Sequence record: OK076929.1
Source of the DNA: Escherichia phage vB_EcoM_C2-3
Reading direction: 5' to 3' (one strand)
Length of the DNA stretch: 64,000 bases
The notes beneath the pieces are model-generated. The model did no database searches. It saw nothing but the letters and a program-made list of their open reading frames with translations, and was not told the DNA's origin. Made by a program: the position numbers and the translations under genes. Numbering within the stretch: the first letter of the stretch is position 1; each line of letters starts with the position of its first letter. Shown here one piece after another: positions 43,082 through 53,098 of the stretch.

Positions 43082-45778
43082 ATGAAAGAATTTTATATCT
43101 CTATCGAAACAGTCGGAAATAACATTGTTGAACGTTATATTGATGAAAATGGAAAGGAACGTACTCGCGAAGTAGAATATCTTCCGACTATGTTTAGGCA
43201 TTGTAAGGAAGAGTCAAAGTACAAAGACATCTATGGTAAAAATTGCGCTCCTCAAAAATTTCCATCAATGAAAGATGCTCGAGATTGGATGAAGCGAATG
43301 GAAGACATCGGTCTCGAAGCTCTTGGTATGAACGATTTTAAACTCGCTTATATCAGTGATACGTATGGTTCAGAAATTGTTTATGACCGAAAATTTGTTC
43401 GTGTAGCTAACTGTGACATTGAGGTTACTGGTGATAAATTTCCTGATCCAATGAAAGCTGAATATGAAATTGATGCTATCACTCATTATGATTCAATTGA
43501 TGATCGTTTTTATGTTTTCGACCTTTTGAATTCAATGTACGGTTCAGTATCAAAATGGGATGCAAAGTTAGCTGCTAAGCTTGACTGTGAAGGTGGTGAT
43601 GAAGTTCCTCAAGAAATTCTTGACCGAGTAATTTATATGCCATTTGATAATGAGCGTGATATGCTCATGGAATATATTAATCTCTGGGAACAGAAACGAC
43701 CTGCTATTTTTACCGGTTGGAATATTGAGGGATTTGACGTTCCGTATATCATGAATCGTGTTAAAATGGTTCTCGGTGAACGTAGTATGAAACGCTTCTC
43801 TCCAATCGGTCGAGTAAAATCTAAACTAATTCAAAATGTGTACGGTAGCAAAGAAATTTATTCTATTGATGGCGTATCTATTCTTGATTATTTAGATTTG
43901 TATAAGAAATTCGCATTTACTAATTTGCCGTCATTCTCTTTGGAATCAGTTGCTCAGCATGAAACCAAAAAAGGTAAATTACCGTACGATGGTCCTATTA
44001 ATAAACTTCGTGAGACTAATCATCAGCGATACATTAGTTATAACATCATTGACGTAGAATCAGTTCAAGCAATTGATAAAATTCGCGGGTTTATCGATCT
44101 AGTTTTAAGTATGTCTTATTACGCTAAAATGCCTTTTTCTGGTGTAATGAGTCCTATTAAAACTTGGGATGCTATTATTTTTAACTCATTGAAAGGTGAA
44201 CATAAGGTTATTCCTCAACAAGGTTCGCATGTTAAACAGAGTTTTCCGGGTGCATTTGTGTTTGAACCTAAACCAATTGCTCGTCGATATATTATGAGTT
44301 TTGACTTGACGTCTCTGTATCCGAGCATTATTCGTCAGGTTAACATTAGTCCTGAGACTATTCGTGGACAATTTAAAGTTCATCCAATTCATGAATATAT
44401 CGCAGGAACAGCTCCTAAGCCAAGTGAAGAATATTCTTGTTCTCCGAATGGATGGATGTATGATAAGCATCAAGAAGGTATCATTCCAAAGGAAATCGCT
44501 AAAGTATTTTTCCAGCGTAAAGACTGGAAAAAGAAAATGTTCGCTGAAGAAATGAATGCCGAAGCTATTAAAAAGATTATTATGAAAGGCGCAGGGTCTT
44601 GTTCAACTAAACCTGAAGTTGAACGATATGTTAAGTTCAGTGATGATTTCTTAAATGAACTATCGAATTATACTGAATCTGTTCTCAATAGTCTGATTGA
44701 AGAATGTGAAAAAGCTGCTACACTTGCTAATACAAATCAGCTGAACCGTAAAATTCTCATTAACAGTCTTTATGGCGCTCTTGGTAATATTCATTTCCGT
44801 TACTATGATTTGCGAAATGCTACTGCTATCACAATTTTCGGCCAAGTTGGTATTCAGTGGATTGCTCGTAAAATTAATGAATATCTGAATAAAGTATGCG
44901 GAACTAATGGTGAAGATTTCATCGCAGCAGGTGATACTGATTCGGTATATGTTTGTGTAGATAAAGTTATTGAAAAAGTTGGTCTTGACCGATTCAAAGA
45001 GCAGAACGATTTAGTTGAATTCATGAATCAGTTCGGTAAGAAAAAGATGGAACCTATGATTGATGTTGCATATCGTGAGTTATGTGATTATATGAATAAC
45101 CGCGAGCATCTGATGCATATGGACCGTGAAGCTATTTCTTGCCCTCCACTTGGTTCAAAGGGTGTTGGTGGATTTTGGAAAGCGAAAAAGCGTTATGCTC
45201 TGAACGTTTATGATATGGAAGATAAACGATTTGCTGAACCGCATCTAAAAATCATGGGTATGGAAACTCAGCAGAGTTCAACACCAAAAGCAGTGCAAGA
45301 AGCTCTCGAAGAAAGTATTCGTCGTATTCTTCAAGAAGGTGAAGAGTCTGTCCAAGAATACTACAAGAACTTCGAGAAAGAATATCGTCAACTTGACTAT
45401 AAAGTTATTGCTGAAGTAAAAACCGCGAACGATATAGCGAAATATGATGATAAAGGTTGGCCAGGGTTTAAATGCCCGTTCCATATTCGCGGTGTGCTAA
45501 CTTATCGTCGAGCTGTTAGTGGTCTGGGTGTAGCTCCAATTTTGGATGGAAATAAGGTAATGGTTCTTCCATTACGTGAAGGAAATCCATTTGGTGACAA
45601 GTGTATTGCTTGGCCGTCGGGCACAGAACTTCCAAAAGAAATTCGTTCTGACGTACTGTCTTGGATTGACTACTCAACTTTGTTCCAAAAATCGTTTGTT
45701 AAACCGCTTGCGGGTATGTGTGAATCGGCTGGTATGGACTATGAAGAAAAAGCTTCGTTAGACTTCCTGTTTGGCTGA
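43082..45778 (+). CDS. 43: DNA polymerase gp43 (family B)
   Basis: 898 aa; exonuclease and polymerase motifs (DTDS), recognised as T4 gp43. Confidence 0.97.
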   Translation: MKEFYISIETVGNNIVERYIDENGKERTREVEYLPTMFRHCKEESKYKDIYGKNCAPQKFPSMKDARDWMKRMEDIGLEALGMNDFKLAYISDTYGSEIVYDRKFVRVANCDIEVTGDKFPDPMKAEYEIDAITHYDSIDDRFYVFDLLNSMYGSVSKWDAKLAAKLDCEGGDEVPQEILDRVIYMPFDNERDMLMEYINLWEQKRPAIFTGWNIEGFDVPYIMNRVKMVLGERSMKRFSPIGRVKSKLIQNVYGSKEIYSIDGVSILDYLDLYKKFAFTNLPSFSLESVAQHETKKGKLPYDGPINKLRETNHQRYISYNIIDVESVQAIDKIRGFIDLVLSMSYYAKMPFSGVMSPIKTWDAIIFNSLKGEHKVIPQQGSHVKQSFPGAFVFEPKPIARRYIMSFDLTSLYPSIIRQVNISPETIRGQFKVHPIHEYIAGTAPKPSEEYSCSPNGWMYDKHQEGIIPKEIAKVFFQRKDWKKKMFAEEMNAEAIKKIIMKGAGSCSTKPEVERYVKFSDDFLNELSNYTESVLNSLIEECEKAATLANTNQLNRKILINSLYGALGNIHFRYYDLRNATAITIFGQVGIQWIARKINEYLNKVCGTNGEDFIAAGDTDSVYVCVDKVIEKVGLDRFKEQNDLVEFMNQFGKKKMEPMIDVAYRELCDYMNNREHLMHMDREAISCPPLGSKGVGGFWKAKKRYALNVYDMEDKRFAEPHLKIMGMETQQSSTPKAVQEALEESIRRILQEGEESVQEYYKNFEKEYRQLDYKVIAEVKTANDIAKYDDKGWPGFKCPFHIRGVLTYRRAVSGLGVAPILDGNKVMVLPLREGNPFGDKCIAWPSGTELPKEIRSDVLSWIDYSTLFQKSFVKPLAGMCESAGMDYEEKASLDFLFG

Positions 45779-45790
45779 TAGAATAAATCT

Positions 45791-45812
45791 AGGGACCTCC
45801 GGGTCCCTTTTT
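45791..45812 (+). terminator. intrinsic terminator (agggacc-tccg-ggtccct + TTTTT)
   Basis: 7-bp stem, T-run. Confidence 0.65.
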
Positions 45813-45895
45813 CATACAAGTAATATAAATCTATACTTATGAAAAACAGATGATTCTGGACCTTTAGAATTCCCTAAAAAATTTTTCACAAAACT

Positions 45896-45925
45896 GTTTA
45901 CAAGACTGTTCCTCTGTGGTACTAT
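45896..45925 (+). promoter_or_regulatory. early promoter (repeat cassette)
   Basis: ttttcacaaaactgtttacaagactgttcctctgtggtactatacaactatcaacta; near-identical to 2644-2700 and 19201-19245. Confidence 0.55.
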
Positions 45926-45959
45926 ACAACTATCAACTAATACGGATTTGGAGAATAAA

Positions 45960-46196
45960 ATGAAAATTGTTATGGGATGCTTAGCAGTTTGTTTAGTTGC
46001 ATTAGTAGCAGTTCCATTTGTTAGTGTTGAAAATGATACTCAACCTGTGATTAAATCTAGCACCGTTATTCACACTAATGGTAAAATATCAGTTAAAATT
46101 GATGATAATCTTCATGTGAATACAAATGGATCTTTAGGTGTGCAAATGGGTAATACCTGCATAAGCACTACTGGAGTAATTACTACTTGCATTTGA
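45960..46196 (+). CDS. hypothetical secreted/membrane protein (about 78 aa)
   Basis: Start moved to MKIVMG after GGAG; N-terminal hydrophobic signal-like segment. Confidence 0.5.
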   Translation: MKIVMGCLAVCLVALVAVPFVSVENDTQPVIKSSTVIHTNGKISVKIDDNLHVNTNGSLGVQMGNTCISTTGVITTCI

Positions 46197-46206
46197 GGAA
46201 ATTATT

Positions 46207-46587
46207 ATGAAAATCGCTATTTTGGTTATTGCATTAGGTCTTACTGGTTGTGTAGCTCAAGGACCGGTAGTAAATCAGTCTGATGTAGGAAAAATTGTAA
46301 ACTGTTCAAGCAAGTTTTATAATCCTAATGTCAAGTGTTATAAAGAAGCTCCAAAACAGACAGTAGAACAAATGCAGGCGAATTTTGACGAGGCTATTCG
46401 TCCAGATGAATCTGCTCAAGCATATCGTAATTCTGATGTAATTACACGCGAAGAAAAAATTGAAAACTACTGCGCCGAGCTTTGGGCAAATTGGGCTAAT
46501 AATTACCAATGGCGTACCGGTAAAAATGCTCCGATGGAGTATGTAGTGAATTCTTATAATTCATGTGTAAAAAATTTGACTAAGTGA
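46207..46587 (+). CDS. putative lipoprotein (126 aa)
   Basis: Signal peptide with lipobox LTGC; several Cys in mature part. Confidence 0.55.
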   Translation: MKIAILVIALGLTGCVAQGPVVNQSDVGKIVNCSSKFYNPNVKCYKEAPKQTVEQMQANFDEAIRPDESAQAYRNSDVITREEKIENYCAELWANWANNYQWRTGKNAPMEYVVNSYNSCVKNLTK

Positions 46588-46594
46588 GGAAAAC

Positions 46595-46846
46595 ATGGAA
46601 ACTTTAGTAGCAGGTTCAATTTTTATGGTTTTAGTTTCAGGTGTGTTGGCTATTATTATATACATGCTTCCATGGTTTATCGCCTTGATGCGTGGGTCAA
46701 AATCGACAGTAGGAATCTTTTTCACATCTTTACTGTTTAACTGGTCAATTATTGGTTGGTTTATTACATTTATTTGGTCAATTGCGGGTGAAACTAAAAA
46801 GTCTGCACAACCAAACCAGGTAATTATCATCAGAGAGAAGGAATGA
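46595..46846 (+). CDS. imm: superinfection immunity protein Imm
   Basis: 83 aa two-helix membrane protein, recognised as T4 Imm. Confidence 0.85.
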   Translation: METLVAGSIFMVLVSGVLAIIIYMLPWFIALMRGSKSTVGIFFTSLLFNWSIIGWFITFIWSIAGETKKSAQPNQVIIIREKE

Positions 46847-46992
46847 AAAGCAAAATTATAACAGTGTTGCTTTTAATCTTGATGATTATAATAAGTATAT
46901 ACTATAGTGTAACGGTTCCTCTTATGATTCCAACTATTATTTTAGGTTGGGGTTTATTACTGTTACAAGTTAAATATGAATGTATCAATTGA
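46843..46992 (+). CDS. hypothetical small membrane protein (49 aa)
   Basis: Hydrophobic small ORF, ATGA-coupled to imm. Confidence 0.35.
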   Translation: MKSKIITVLLLILMIIISIYYSVTVPLMIPTIILGWGLLLLQVKYECIN

Positions 46993-46999
46993 GGTTTAA

Positions 47000-47740
47000 A
47001 TGATTAGTGACTCTATGACAGTTGAAGAAATCCGTCTTCATTTGGGGCTTGCATTAAAAGAAAAAGATTTCGTAGTTGATAAAACTGGTGTTAAAACTAT
47101 TGAAATTATTGGCGCATCATTTGTAGCAGATGAACCGTTTATTTTTGGCGCTCTTAATGATGAATACATTCAGCGTGAACTTGAATGGTATAAATCTAAG
47201 AGCTTGTTTGTTAAAGATATTCCAGGTGAAACACCAAAGATTTGGCAGCAGGTAGCATCTTCTAAAGGCGAAATTAACTCGAATTATGGTTGGGCTATTT
47301 GGTCAGAAGATAACTATGCCCAGTATGATATGTGTTTAGCTGAACTTAGTCAAAATCCTGATTCTCGACGTGGTATCATGATTTATACTCGTCCATCCAT
47401 GCAATTTGACTACAATAAAGATGGTATGTCAGATTTCATGTGTACTAATACAGTACAGTACCTGATTCGTGATAAGAAAGTCAATGCGGTTGTTAGCATG
47501 AGAAGCAATGATTGCTGGGCAGGCTATCGTAATGATTATGCTTGGCAAAAATACGTACTAGATAAATTAGTATCTGATTTGAATGCAGGCGACCCATCGC
47601 GGCAATATAAAGCAGGTTCTATTATATGGAACGTTGGAAGTCTTCATGTGTACGAAAATCAGTTTTATTTAGTTGACCATTGGTGGAACACCGGTGAGAC
47701 TCATATTGCTAAAAAGGATTATACTGGAAAATGGAAGTAA
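47000..47740 (+). CDS. 42: dCMP hydroxymethylase gp42
   Basis: 246 aa, recognised as T4 gp42. Confidence 0.95.
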   Translation: MISDSMTVEEIRLHLGLALKEKDFVVDKTGVKTIEIIGASFVADEPFIFGALNDEYIQRELEWYKSKSLFVKDIPGETPKIWQQVASSKGEINSNYGWAIWSEDNYAQYDMCLAELSQNPDSRRGIMIYTRPSMQFDYNKDGMSDFMCTNTVQYLIRDKKVNAVVSMRSNDCWAGYRNDYAWQKYVLDKLVSDLNAGDPSRQYKAGSIIWNVGSLHVYENQFYLVDHWWNTGETHIAKKDYTGKWK

Positions 47741-48372
47741 ATGTGCCACATGTTTATAAGTATAAACATCCTAAAACTAAAAAGTGGTATATAGGAAGTC
47801 ATGATGGTCACAACCCGAATTATGATGGTTCGGGTGTAGTTTGGCAACATGCTAAAAAGAAATATGGAATAAAATCCTTTAATAAAGAAATATTATATGA
47901 AGGACCAATGTTTAGACAGGTTGAAGAAATTATTTTAACTTGTTTAGATGCTGCTAATTGTCCGGATTCATATAATTTAAAGAATGAAGCATGGGGAGGA
48001 AGTTTTCCAGGCAAATTAAATGGAATGTACGGTAAAAAACTATCTCCAGAAGAAAGATATAAGTGCGGAAATGCCTTTCGTGGAATCAAGCGTCCTGATC
48101 ATTCTAAAAGAATGAAAGGCGAAGGTAATCCAATGTATGGTAAAAATGAGCAGGCATATGGAATTATAAATCGAGCCAAGGAAAATTCTGGTAAAACTTA
48201 TGAAGAAATTTTTGGCGTAGAAAAAGCTAAAATAATTAAAGAAACGATGTCTAAAAATCGTAAAGGAAAACCTCATAATTTGATAGAAAAAATATGTCCG
48301 CATTGCGGACTAAAAGGACGTGGGCCAAATATGACAAGATACCATTTTGACAAATGTAAGGCACTTAAATGA
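47731..48372 (+). CDS. free-standing GIY-YIG homing endonuclease (Seg-like)
   Basis: HVYKYKH...KKWYIGSHDG GIY-YIG-like motif, Lys-rich tail, C-terminal CPHCG zinc motif; overlaps gene 42 stop. Confidence 0.6.
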   Translation: MEVNVPHVYKYKHPKTKKWYIGSHDGHNPNYDGSGVVWQHAKKKYGIKSFNKEILYEGPMFRQVEEIILTCLDAANCPDSYNLKNEAWGGSFPGKLNGMYGKKLSPEERYKCGNAFRGIKRPDHSKRMKGEGNPMYGKNEQAYGIINRAKENSGKTYEEIFGVEKAKIIKETMSKNRKGKPHNLIEKICPHCGLKGRGPNMTRYHFDKCKALK

Positions 48373-49211
48373 TTCAATTCGTAATTCCAAGTTATCAGCG
48401 TGTAGGGGCAGTTTCTGCCCTTAATATGTTTCCGACTGATTATGAACCCCATATTGTAGTGCGTGAACACGAAGAAAAAGCTTATTATGATGCTTATGGG
48501 TCTAGAGCTAAAATTGTAACTATTCCTGATGATGTTAATGGAATTGCCGGTACTCGTAAAGCAATTACTGATATGTATGCAGGTCAACGAATCTGGATGA
48601 TTGATGATGATACTACTATTCGTATGAGTTCAATACGAAAGAGAGACGATAAACGGCGTGTAGATAAAATTAATCAATTAACTCGTGAACAGTTCTATGA
48701 ATTGATTCAATATGTTGAAGATGCCATGGATTGCGGGTATTATCACGGTCATGCTCGTCTACCAATTTTTAAAATTACTTCATCTTGGGGTAATTATCGT
48801 GAAAATTCATATGGATTCACGAATACATGGTATGACCTCGGAAAACTTACGACAGAACAAATTGGGTATGGAAAAATTGATTTATGCGAAGATATGTATG
48901 CATTTCTCAATTTAATTAATCAAGGTTATCCGCATTTGGCCTTGTTCAAATATCTAGTTGTATCTGGAAAATCACACGCTCCCGGTGGGTGTAGTTCAAT
49001 TCGTAGTAATTCTAAACATAATAGAGCGCTTGAGCAAATCAATAGAGAGTTTCCAGAGCAAGCTCGTTGGAAAACATCGAATATTGAAAAACGAAAATCG
49101 TTGGGTGAAGAAGACGAGCCATTAAAGGTTCTTCGCATGTGTGTTTCGCGTAAAGAAAAATCAGAAGCATTTCATAAGTTTAATGCTATTCATCCAATAG
49201 CAGTTGATTAA
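48369..49211 (+). CDS. glycosyltransferase, GT-A-like, at the locus occupied by beta-gt in T4
   Basis: VIPSYQR and DDD (DxD-like) motifs suggest GT-A fold; not recognisable as T4 beta-gt. Confidence 0.5.
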   Translation: MIQFVIPSYQRVGAVSALNMFPTDYEPHIVVREHEEKAYYDAYGSRAKIVTIPDDVNGIAGTRKAITDMYAGQRIWMIDDDTTIRMSSIRKRDDKRRVDKINQLTREQFYELIQYVEDAMDCGYYHGHARLPIFKITSSWGNYRENSYGFTNTWYDLGKLTTEQIGYGKIDLCEDMYAFLNLINQGYPHLALFKYLVVSGKSHAPGGCSSIRSNSKHNRALEQINREFPEQARWKTSNIEKRKSLGEEDEPLKVLRMCVSRKEKSEAFHKFNAIHPIAVD

Positions 49212-52804: not shown

Positions 52805-53098
52805 ATGAAAAAATTTATCTTTGCTACAATTTTTGCTTTAGCTTCTTGTGCTGCTCAGCCTGCTATGGCAGGTTATGATAAAGATTTGTGTGAATGGTCT
52901 ATGACTGCGGATCAGACTGAAGTTGAAACTCAAATTGAAGCAGATATTATGAATATCGTTGAGCGCGATCGTCCTGAAATGAAAGCTGAAGTGCAAAAAC
53001 AGCTTAAGTCTGGTGGTGTAATGCAGTATAATTATGTTCTGTATTGCGATAAAAACTTTAATAACAAAAATATCATCGCTGAAGTGGTAGGTGAGTAA
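52805..53098 (+). CDS. sp: Spackle periplasmic protein Sp
   Basis: 97 aa with signal peptide, recognised as T4 Sp. Confidence 0.8.
   Translation: MKKFIFATIFALASCAAQPAMAGYDKDLCEWSMTADQTEVETQIEADIMNIVERDRPEMKAEVQKQLKSGGVMQYNYVLYCDKNFNNKNIIAEVVGE

Follow-up and report, generated by a model that had tools for sequence, protein, structure and literature searches.

Organization of the imm locus

We analyzed the superinfection immunity locus of Escherichia phage vB_EcoM_C2-3 in a 64,000-nucleotide stretch of sequence record OK076929.1 (the window), where the gene imm.1, directly upstream of the superinfection immunity gene imm, encodes a predicted lipoprotein for which a role in exclusion, as a candidate partner of Imm, is plausible. 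The locus runs 43, ORF78, imm.1, imm, ORF49, 42, with all genes on the + strand and the four middle open reading frames (ORFs) tightly packed (Table 1). This cassette between genes 43 and 42 is the known 43-imm.1-imm-42 region of phage T4 and is collinear with it, the + strand of the window corresponding to the minus strand of T4. Genes, order and orientation are the same as in the T4 imm.1-imm locus (NC_000866 26227-27013), and the promoter and terminator sequences are near-identical, whereas ORF78 sits between the promoter and imm.1 in the window and is lacking from T4 (a 247-bp indel), and a 1-nt change at the end of imm.1 gives the window Imm.1 one extra residue. The T4 RefSeq annotation of the interval lists 43, imm.1, imm and 42. 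The promoter-like site lies upstream of ORF78 in the window, the same sequence lying upstream of imm.1 in T4, and the terminator-like hairpin after gene 43 is an annotated terminator in phage DalCa.

Over positions 45700-47100, identity to Shigella phage JK23 is 99.9%, and 514 phage records, nearly all of them Tequatrovirus, match this stretch. The window is itself Tequatrovirus DNA, and there is no new gene at its imm locus, which is known, has been sequenced hundreds of times and has its genes annotated in relatives. The initial annotation of the window had described a compact, envelope-targeted cluster around imm, composed of a signal-peptide protein, a lipobox-containing lipoprotein, Imm itself and a 49-residue membrane peptide coupled to imm by an ATGA overlap. 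All four ORFs were found as described, on the + strand, and all four products are predicted to be envelope-bound. Strongly hydrophobic 17-residue stretches are encoded by 14 of the 126 non-overlapping + strand ORFs of the window, and four such ORFs would stand consecutively by chance with p ~0.02, assuming that genes are independent.

Table 1. Genes and putative transcription signals of the imm locus, in window coordinates.
Feature	Position	Strand	Basis
Gene 43 (DNA polymerase), upstream cassette boundary	43082..45778	+	898-aa ORF; aligns with T4 gp43; DNA polymerase annotation in all close relatives
Terminator-like hairpin and T run after gene 43	45791..45813 (hairpin 45791-45808)	+	7-bp stem with 5 GC pairs, then TTTTT
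Candidate early-type (sigma-70-like) promoter	45897..45925	+	TTTACA-17-TACTAT, TG before second hexamer; consensus match only
ORF78, predicted small exported or membrane-anchored protein, variable accessory gene	45960..46196	+	phrog_4189 match
imm.1, predicted lipoprotein	46207..46587	+	DUF5481 (PF17578) / phrog_1754
imm, inner-membrane superinfection immunity protein	46595..46846	+	Imm_superinfect (PF14373)
ORF49, predicted two-segment small membrane protein	46843..46992	+	phrog_3610; ATGA overlap with imm
Gene 42 (dCMP hydroxymethylase), downstream boundary	47000..47740	+	Pfam Thymidylat_synt; aligns with T4 gp42

Imm.1 belongs to a family of predicted lipoproteins

The imm.1 product, which is 99% identical to T4 Imm.1, matches Pfam family DUF5481 (PF17578) with 239 bits (cut-off 27) and phrog_1754 with an E value of 5e-44 over positions 2-148 of 148. 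Its N-terminus (MKIAILVIALGLTGC) conforms to the PROSITE PS51257-type lipobox rule, which we applied as a basic N-terminus, a hydrophobic core and [LVI][ASTVI][GAS]C with the Cys at position 15-35; the elements found were K2, LTGC, Cys15 and Val at +2. Seven lipoproteins from other genera all retain the lipobox Gly-Cys, the exception in the family being the metagenomic homologue P0004, where an AHA signal-peptidase I site stands in place of the lipobox. E. coli lipoproteins without Asp at +2 are sorted to the outer membrane, and Asp at +2 is absent from every phrog_1754 lipoprotein compared, so outer-membrane sorting is expected for the family. We infer from these sequence signals that Imm.1 is lipidated and located in the outer membrane. 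The lipoprotein call of the initial annotation stands as a prediction; that this is the already named T4 gene imm.1 had not been recognized.

Beyond the lipobox, the family is marked by three features: QG.VV.A.EVGK following the Cys, G.GL.Y.R...Q in the centre and two Cys residues in the C-terminal part. The AlphaFold2 model of Imm.1, built from a 6-sequence alignment, has a mean predicted local distance difference test score (pLDDT) of 63.7 and is confident only in the C-terminal helical hairpin, which holds the conserved Cys89 and Cys120 at pLDDT ~90; the Cys pair is consistent with a periplasmic disulfide. Sequence searches of the PDB with Imm.1 and Imm returned no relatives, and an NCBIfam search returned nothing useful.

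Searches with the single Imm.1 sequence recovered 3 clusters by a word-indexed method and 6 representatives among 1.84 billion proteins by exhaustive HMMER. All 501 Tequatrovirus records encode Imm.1 at 95% identity or more, and a 33% identical homologue is present in 155 Mosigvirus records. Further lipobox proteins, of 138-178 residues, adjoin imm either upstream or downstream in SP18, IME08, S16, a Klebsiella T4-like phage and PS2. The groups from different genera were not bridged by jackhmmer on the mature lipoprotein sequences, and hhalign between the mature groups gave patchy results, with probabilities of 0.5-93%. The imm-adjacent lipoproteins of Mosigvirus, Gaprivervirus, Dhakavirus, Gelderlandvirus, the Klebsiella T4-like phage and Muldoonvirus are nevertheless full-length matches to phrog_1754 (E 1e-15 to 1e-52), and the lipoproteins encoded after gene 43 in Kanagawavirus and Kagamiyamavirus also match it. 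Because the lipoproteins of all genera, like the window Imm.1, match phrog_1754 over its full length, we took them as one family.

Among known proteins, T4 Spackle (gp61.3), a periplasmic inhibitor of the gp5 tail lysozyme (PMC7677548), offers a point of comparison. Spackle is involved in exclusion and resembles Imm.1 in being small, exported, early and disulfide-containing, features that for Imm.1 are in part predicted; it differs from Imm.1 in being soluble, whereas Imm.1 is predicted to be lipid-anchored, and the two show no BLASTP similarity. The possibility that Imm.1 is a Spackle paralogue was considered and rejected, as no BLASTP alignment was obtained at E <= 100 between the window Imm.1 and the window Spackle.

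The annotation of imm.1 in published sources requires correction on two counts. T4 RefSeq names the product (NP_049661.1; T4 extract L001 4637-5014) 'iduronate sulfatase', a name that appears unsupported; the protein matches only DUF5481 and phrog_1754, both of unknown function. At least one further record (JLBYU31) has taken over the same name. A published comparison credits the T4 group with Imm.1 and the RB69 group with none, and calls its role in exclusion unproven (PMC5885020). Given the 33% identical Mosigvirus homologue, the reported absence from the RB69 group seems to be an effect of search threshold or sensitivity.

Linkage of imm.1 and imm across T4-like phages

In the window, imm.1 and imm lie on the same strand with a gap of 8 bp. 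We scanned IMG/VR with an Imm alignment, which gave 80 loci, and classed as T4-like those with gp43, gp42, sp, dmd or gp41 in the flanks. A phrog_1754-family lipoprotein gene was found on the same strand and <=150 bp from imm at 23/23 T4-like loci and at 0/57 of the others, a count that is not fully independent because the lipoprotein hidden Markov model was built from the same groups, the PHROG result being independent. Divergent metagenomic members of the Imm.1 family (P0004, P0005 and P0007) each have an Imm_superinfect gene directly downstream. Among non-T4 loci with an Imm-domain gene, five have a same-strand lipobox ORF within 30 bp that is not phrog_1754; these ORFs may reflect chance or an analogous pairing.

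The pair is also found outside the T4 arrangement. Mosigvirus carries it elsewhere, in the order dmd-imm.1-imm-sp and directly upstream of spackle, the other exclusion gene (L011, L012 2995-4030). In Dhakavirus and Gaprivervirus the order of lipoprotein gene and imm is inverted, and the two are still neighbours. Record counts for imm.1 and imm are 501 vs 501 in Tequatrovirus and 155 vs 156 in Mosigvirus. Within Tequatrovirus, the ratio of nonsynonymous to synonymous polymorphism (pN/pS) is 0.042 for imm.1, 0.043 for imm, 0.32 for ORF49 and 0.39 for ORF78; purifying selection on imm.1 is strong and equal to that on imm.

The window Imm protein

The assignment of imm was confirmed by a match of 58.2 bits to Pfam Imm_superinfect (PF14373; cut-off 27.9). 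The window protein is 98.8% identical to T4 Imm and has hydrophobic stretches at residues 1-34 and 39-65. In a 2026 preprint, part of the T4 tape-measure protein gp29 co-purified with Imm, plasmid-borne Imm lowered T4 plating by itself, the R33A and W50A substitutions weakened exclusion, and Imm was compared with HK97 gp15 and colicin immunity proteins (bioRxiv 10.64898/2026.03.06.709160). The window Imm is near-identical to the protein studied there, and R33 and W50 are both kept, each being invariant in an alignment of ten Imm proteins. The system of the preprint differs from the locus described here in that Imm was expressed alone, and imm.1, ORF49 and lipoproteins are unmentioned (bioRxiv 10.64898/2026.03.06.709160).

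Comparison of window positions 46577-46597 with L001 4374-4658 shows a further consequence of the 1-nt change at the imm.1 end: imm is preceded in the window by an in-frame TGA (46577-46579), which precludes the 94-residue Imm that T4 could make by upstream extension. The extended form was used for cryo-electron microscopy, and the extension was not needed (bioRxiv 10.64898/2026.03.06.709160). The upstream TGA of the window fits with a dispensable extension.

ORF78 and ORF49

ORF78, the signal-peptide protein of the initial annotation, begins at an ATG 7 nt downstream of a GGAG and matches phrog_4189 (E 4e-30). Residues 1-25 are hydrophobic (MKIVMGCLAVCLVALVAVPFVSV) and are followed by a polar C-terminal part with Cys67 and Cys77. 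The features of a Sec signal are present (a basic N-terminus with K2, and a hydrophobic core at residues 3-23). By eye, the window protein offers only weak candidates for a signal-peptidase I site (LVA↓V), and ALA↓A occurs in variants; ORF78 could be an uncleaved membrane anchor. The AlphaFold2 model is poor (mean pLDDT 54), with a helix followed by short strands.

tblastn located ORF78 in 325 phage records; for imm.1 the Tequatrovirus-level figure is 501. Aligned with T4, the region differs by a clean 247-bp indel, such that the T4 promoter and GGAG run straight into imm.1. The octamer ATGAAAAT stands at both junctions of the indel and forms the start of ORF78 and of imm.1 (window 45950-46215 compared with L001 5010-5030), suggesting deletion between short repeats. 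ORF78 variants carry in-frame expansions of a 7-residue repeat (CLVALAA) in the hydrophobic segment (window 45978-46030), which ranges from ~20 to ~35 residues. One variant has gained a lipobox-like LAAC through the duplication, and the UniRef name of that protein is 'Lipoprotein'. A metagenomic relative of the locus has an frd.3-like gene in the ORF78 slot; this contig was considered as a third genomic context and rejected as such, its partial upstream ORF being the end of gene 43 and the locus therefore the same. We conclude that ORF78 is a dispensable, fast-evolving, lineage-specific addition in a variable slot just after the promoter, with no apparent tie to imm beyond its position.

For ORF49, the likeliest product is an inner-membrane miniprotein whose translation is coupled to that of imm. 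The start codon and the imm stop codon overlap in the sequence ATGA; the protein has hydrophobic stretches at residues 1-30 and 21-43 and matches phrog_3610 with an E value of 5e-26 over positions 1-47 of 47. The gene is intact in T4 (NC_000866 26227-26376; L001 4228-4377, minus strand), with 3/49 residues changed, and is unannotated in RefSeq. Homologues are called hypothetical proteins in RB69, SP18, EcS1 and many Tequatrovirus records, and the RB69 record describes its copy as 'similar to T4 42-imm intercistronic region'. With tblastn, 744 records proved to contain ORF49, among them Mosigvirus, Kanagawavirus, Kagamiyamavirus and an Erwinia phage. Different genera retain the motif MIPT..GW...LQ.KYEC.N at the C-terminus, and RB69, EcS1 and SP18 all have it. 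ORF49 is a real but overlooked small gene, and its omission from T4 RefSeq, where a conserved 49-codon gene is missing, calls for an annotation correction.

The position of ORF49 relative to imm varies among genera. It follows imm directly in Tequatrovirus, Gaprivervirus and most Dhakavirus loci and is not beside imm in Mosigvirus, Gelderlandvirus, Klebsiella T4-like and PS2-like phages. In RB69, Kosakonia 305 and EcS1, ORF49 remains downstream of gene 43 with no adjacent imm. Since ORF49 keeps its place even in phages from which imm has moved away or is absent, ancestral gene order alone may account for its tie to imm.

Outside the cassette, a 213-residue ORF (within 47731-49211) overlaps the end of gene 42; its N-terminus is GIY-YIG-like by eye, and it has a weak NUMOD3 match. 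It is followed by a 280-residue protein of the TET-associated-glycosyltransferase family (Pfam TAGT, 40 bits), which replaces the T4 beta-glucosyltransferase. The close relative KMB40 is without the endonuclease-like ORF downstream of gene 42.

Discussion

The cassette may be read as an early-transcribed operon of small envelope-protein genes with a conserved core of imm.1, imm and ORF49. Imm, in the inner membrane, has been shown by others to bind the gp29 tape measure, blocking DNA entry of superinfecting T-even phages. Once exported, Imm.1 would carry a lipid anchor at Cys15 and be sorted to the outer membrane on its periplasmic side, where it could engage the incoming tail-tube tip or the tape-measure protein in the periplasm; alternatively, Imm.1 may support Imm, such that exclusion would be more efficient than with Imm alone. 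Because the two genes were adjacent at every T4-like imm locus sampled, moved together to a site beside spackle and are equally constrained, our preferred reading, which we hold tentatively and at somewhat less than even confidence, is that Imm.1 is an outer-membrane-anchored periplasmic lipoprotein acting in the same exclusion step as Imm. The initial annotation had suggested that the cluster supplies additional exclusion or envelope-remodelling factors. As regards exclusion, the comparative evidence just named favors this proposal for imm.1 and lends it no support for ORF78, which is variable, or for ORF49, which stays without imm; functional evidence for exclusion exists for none of the three.

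Several observations weigh against a shared role of Imm.1 and Imm. At the 57 non-T4 loci of the IMG/VR scan, no phrog_1754-family lipoprotein was found near the Imm-domain gene (0/57). We also scanned IMG/VR in the reverse direction with an alignment of the Dhaka/Kanagawa-type lipoprotein subgroup (16 loci), the family-wide alignment having no conserved stretch and being unusable, and at 7/16 of the subgroup loci the lipoprotein gene is followed after ~0.6 kb by ORF49 with no imm within 3 kb. In Kosakonia 305 (L004 1301-2590) and EcS1 (L005 1408-2593) the lipoprotein gene comes directly after gene 43, again with no adjacent imm, and a gene annotated as arabinose-5-phosphate isomerase occupies the imm slot between it and ORF49; in EcS1, imm was undetected in the 148 of 175 kb searched, the remainder, at about positions 100-127 kb, lying among late structural genes. 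Among the T4-like loci sampled, then, every imm has the lipoprotein beside it, but not every lipoprotein gene has an imm. Much of the imm.1-imm adjacency could moreover be inherited gene order, which only the Mosigvirus relocation and one inversion test independently. The lipobox itself is a prediction and not a demonstration, because the same simple rule also matches the window Spackle (52805-53098; signal peptide …FALASC AAQPAMA↓G), a protein described as processed to a soluble 75-residue mature form (PMC7677548); the prediction is supported mainly by the invariance of Gly-Cys across the family. Foldseek comparison of the Imm.1 model with the PDB gave no match at E <= 0.001 and hence no structural clue, and in the literature searched for imm.1, DUF5481 and PF14373 neither an imm.1 phenotype nor a functional study was found. 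Finally, exclusion of T4 by Imm alone from a plasmid implies that Imm.1 is not strictly required (bioRxiv 10.64898/2026.03.06.709160).

The main rival to our preferred reading draws on the same observations. Imm.1 may have an envelope function independent of Imm, such as protecting the wall or outer membrane of the infected cell, detecting secondary adsorption for lysis inhibition or another early periplasmic task, with the adjacency reflecting inherited order and a shared early promoter. Such a function would accommodate the persistence of the lipoprotein and ORF49 in the absence of imm (the seven subgroup loci and EcS1), the activity of Imm on its own from a plasmid (bioRxiv 10.64898/2026.03.06.709160) and the gene order that is generally conserved in this part of T4-like genomes. 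It is harder to reconcile with an imm that was always accompanied by the lipoprotein in the sampled T4-like loci (23/23), with a pair kept together in the Mosigvirus move and still neighbours after inversion of their order, and with selection of the same strength on both genes, and we regard it as possible but on the unlikely side. A role in exclusion of another kind would be masking of the receptor in the manner of T5 Llp/Cor, in which Imm.1 would bind an outer-membrane receptor from the periplasm and block adsorption or triggering. Llp and Cor are small early phage lipoproteins, and Imm.1 shares their targeting signals by prediction and would likewise be an early lipoprotein of the outer membrane; Llp is described as a small lipoprotein of the outer-membrane inner leaflet that binds FhuA (bioRxiv 10.64898/2026.03.26.714494). 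The signal peptide of the PS2 member weakly matches the Cor PHROG over residues 1-40, but the match is restricted to the signal peptide, and mature Imm.1 has no similarity to the Llp/Cor families in Pfam or PHROG. Llp and Cor block a specific receptor, and a receptor-specific binder would be expected to vary, whereas the 501 Tequatrovirus records show a near-invariant Imm.1. Receptors differ among the T-even phages, and because Imm.1 hardly varies all the same, receptor masking is in our judgment very improbable.

A further alternative concerns the two small ORFs, which on this account would have no function, being chance frames or decaying remains in AT-rich DNA between genes, imm.1 and imm being the only real genes. 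The lack of an ORF49 annotation in T4 RefSeq, the absence of ORF78 from T4 and from ~1/3 of Tequatrovirus records, and a constraint on both ORFs far below that of their neighbours (pN/pS 0.3-0.4) could be understood in this way. The same ratios are nevertheless below 1 for both, the ORF49 protein is conserved across at least 6 genera with its C-terminal motif kept despite diverged DNA, and the repeat expansions of ORF78 preserve the reading frame. Each ORF also matches a PHROG family, and the translation signals are in order, with a well-placed GGAG for ORF78 and ATGA coupling to imm for ORF49. On the strength of this conservation and of pN/pS < 1, we consider the account still less probable than receptor masking.

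How T4 excludes superinfecting phages is a classic problem, and the mechanism of Imm, through tape-measure binding, has only just been described (bioRxiv 10.64898/2026.03.06.709160). Extending the preferred reading, T-even immunity might be a two-membrane system in which outer-membrane Imm.1 and inner-membrane Imm trap or misdirect the tail-tube tip or the tape measure; Imm.1 might keep an exclusion activity of its own in imm-less phages, and ORF49 might be a small inner-membrane modulator. We offer this extension as speculation that is rather less likely than its starting point. The locus is otherwise ordinary, and the useful outcome is a sharpened, testable hypothesis for imm.1 together with the annotation corrections. 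With a lipoprotein gene beside every sampled T4-like imm, even after the move to spackle, imm.1 is the obvious candidate for a part in the exclusion of superinfecting phages.

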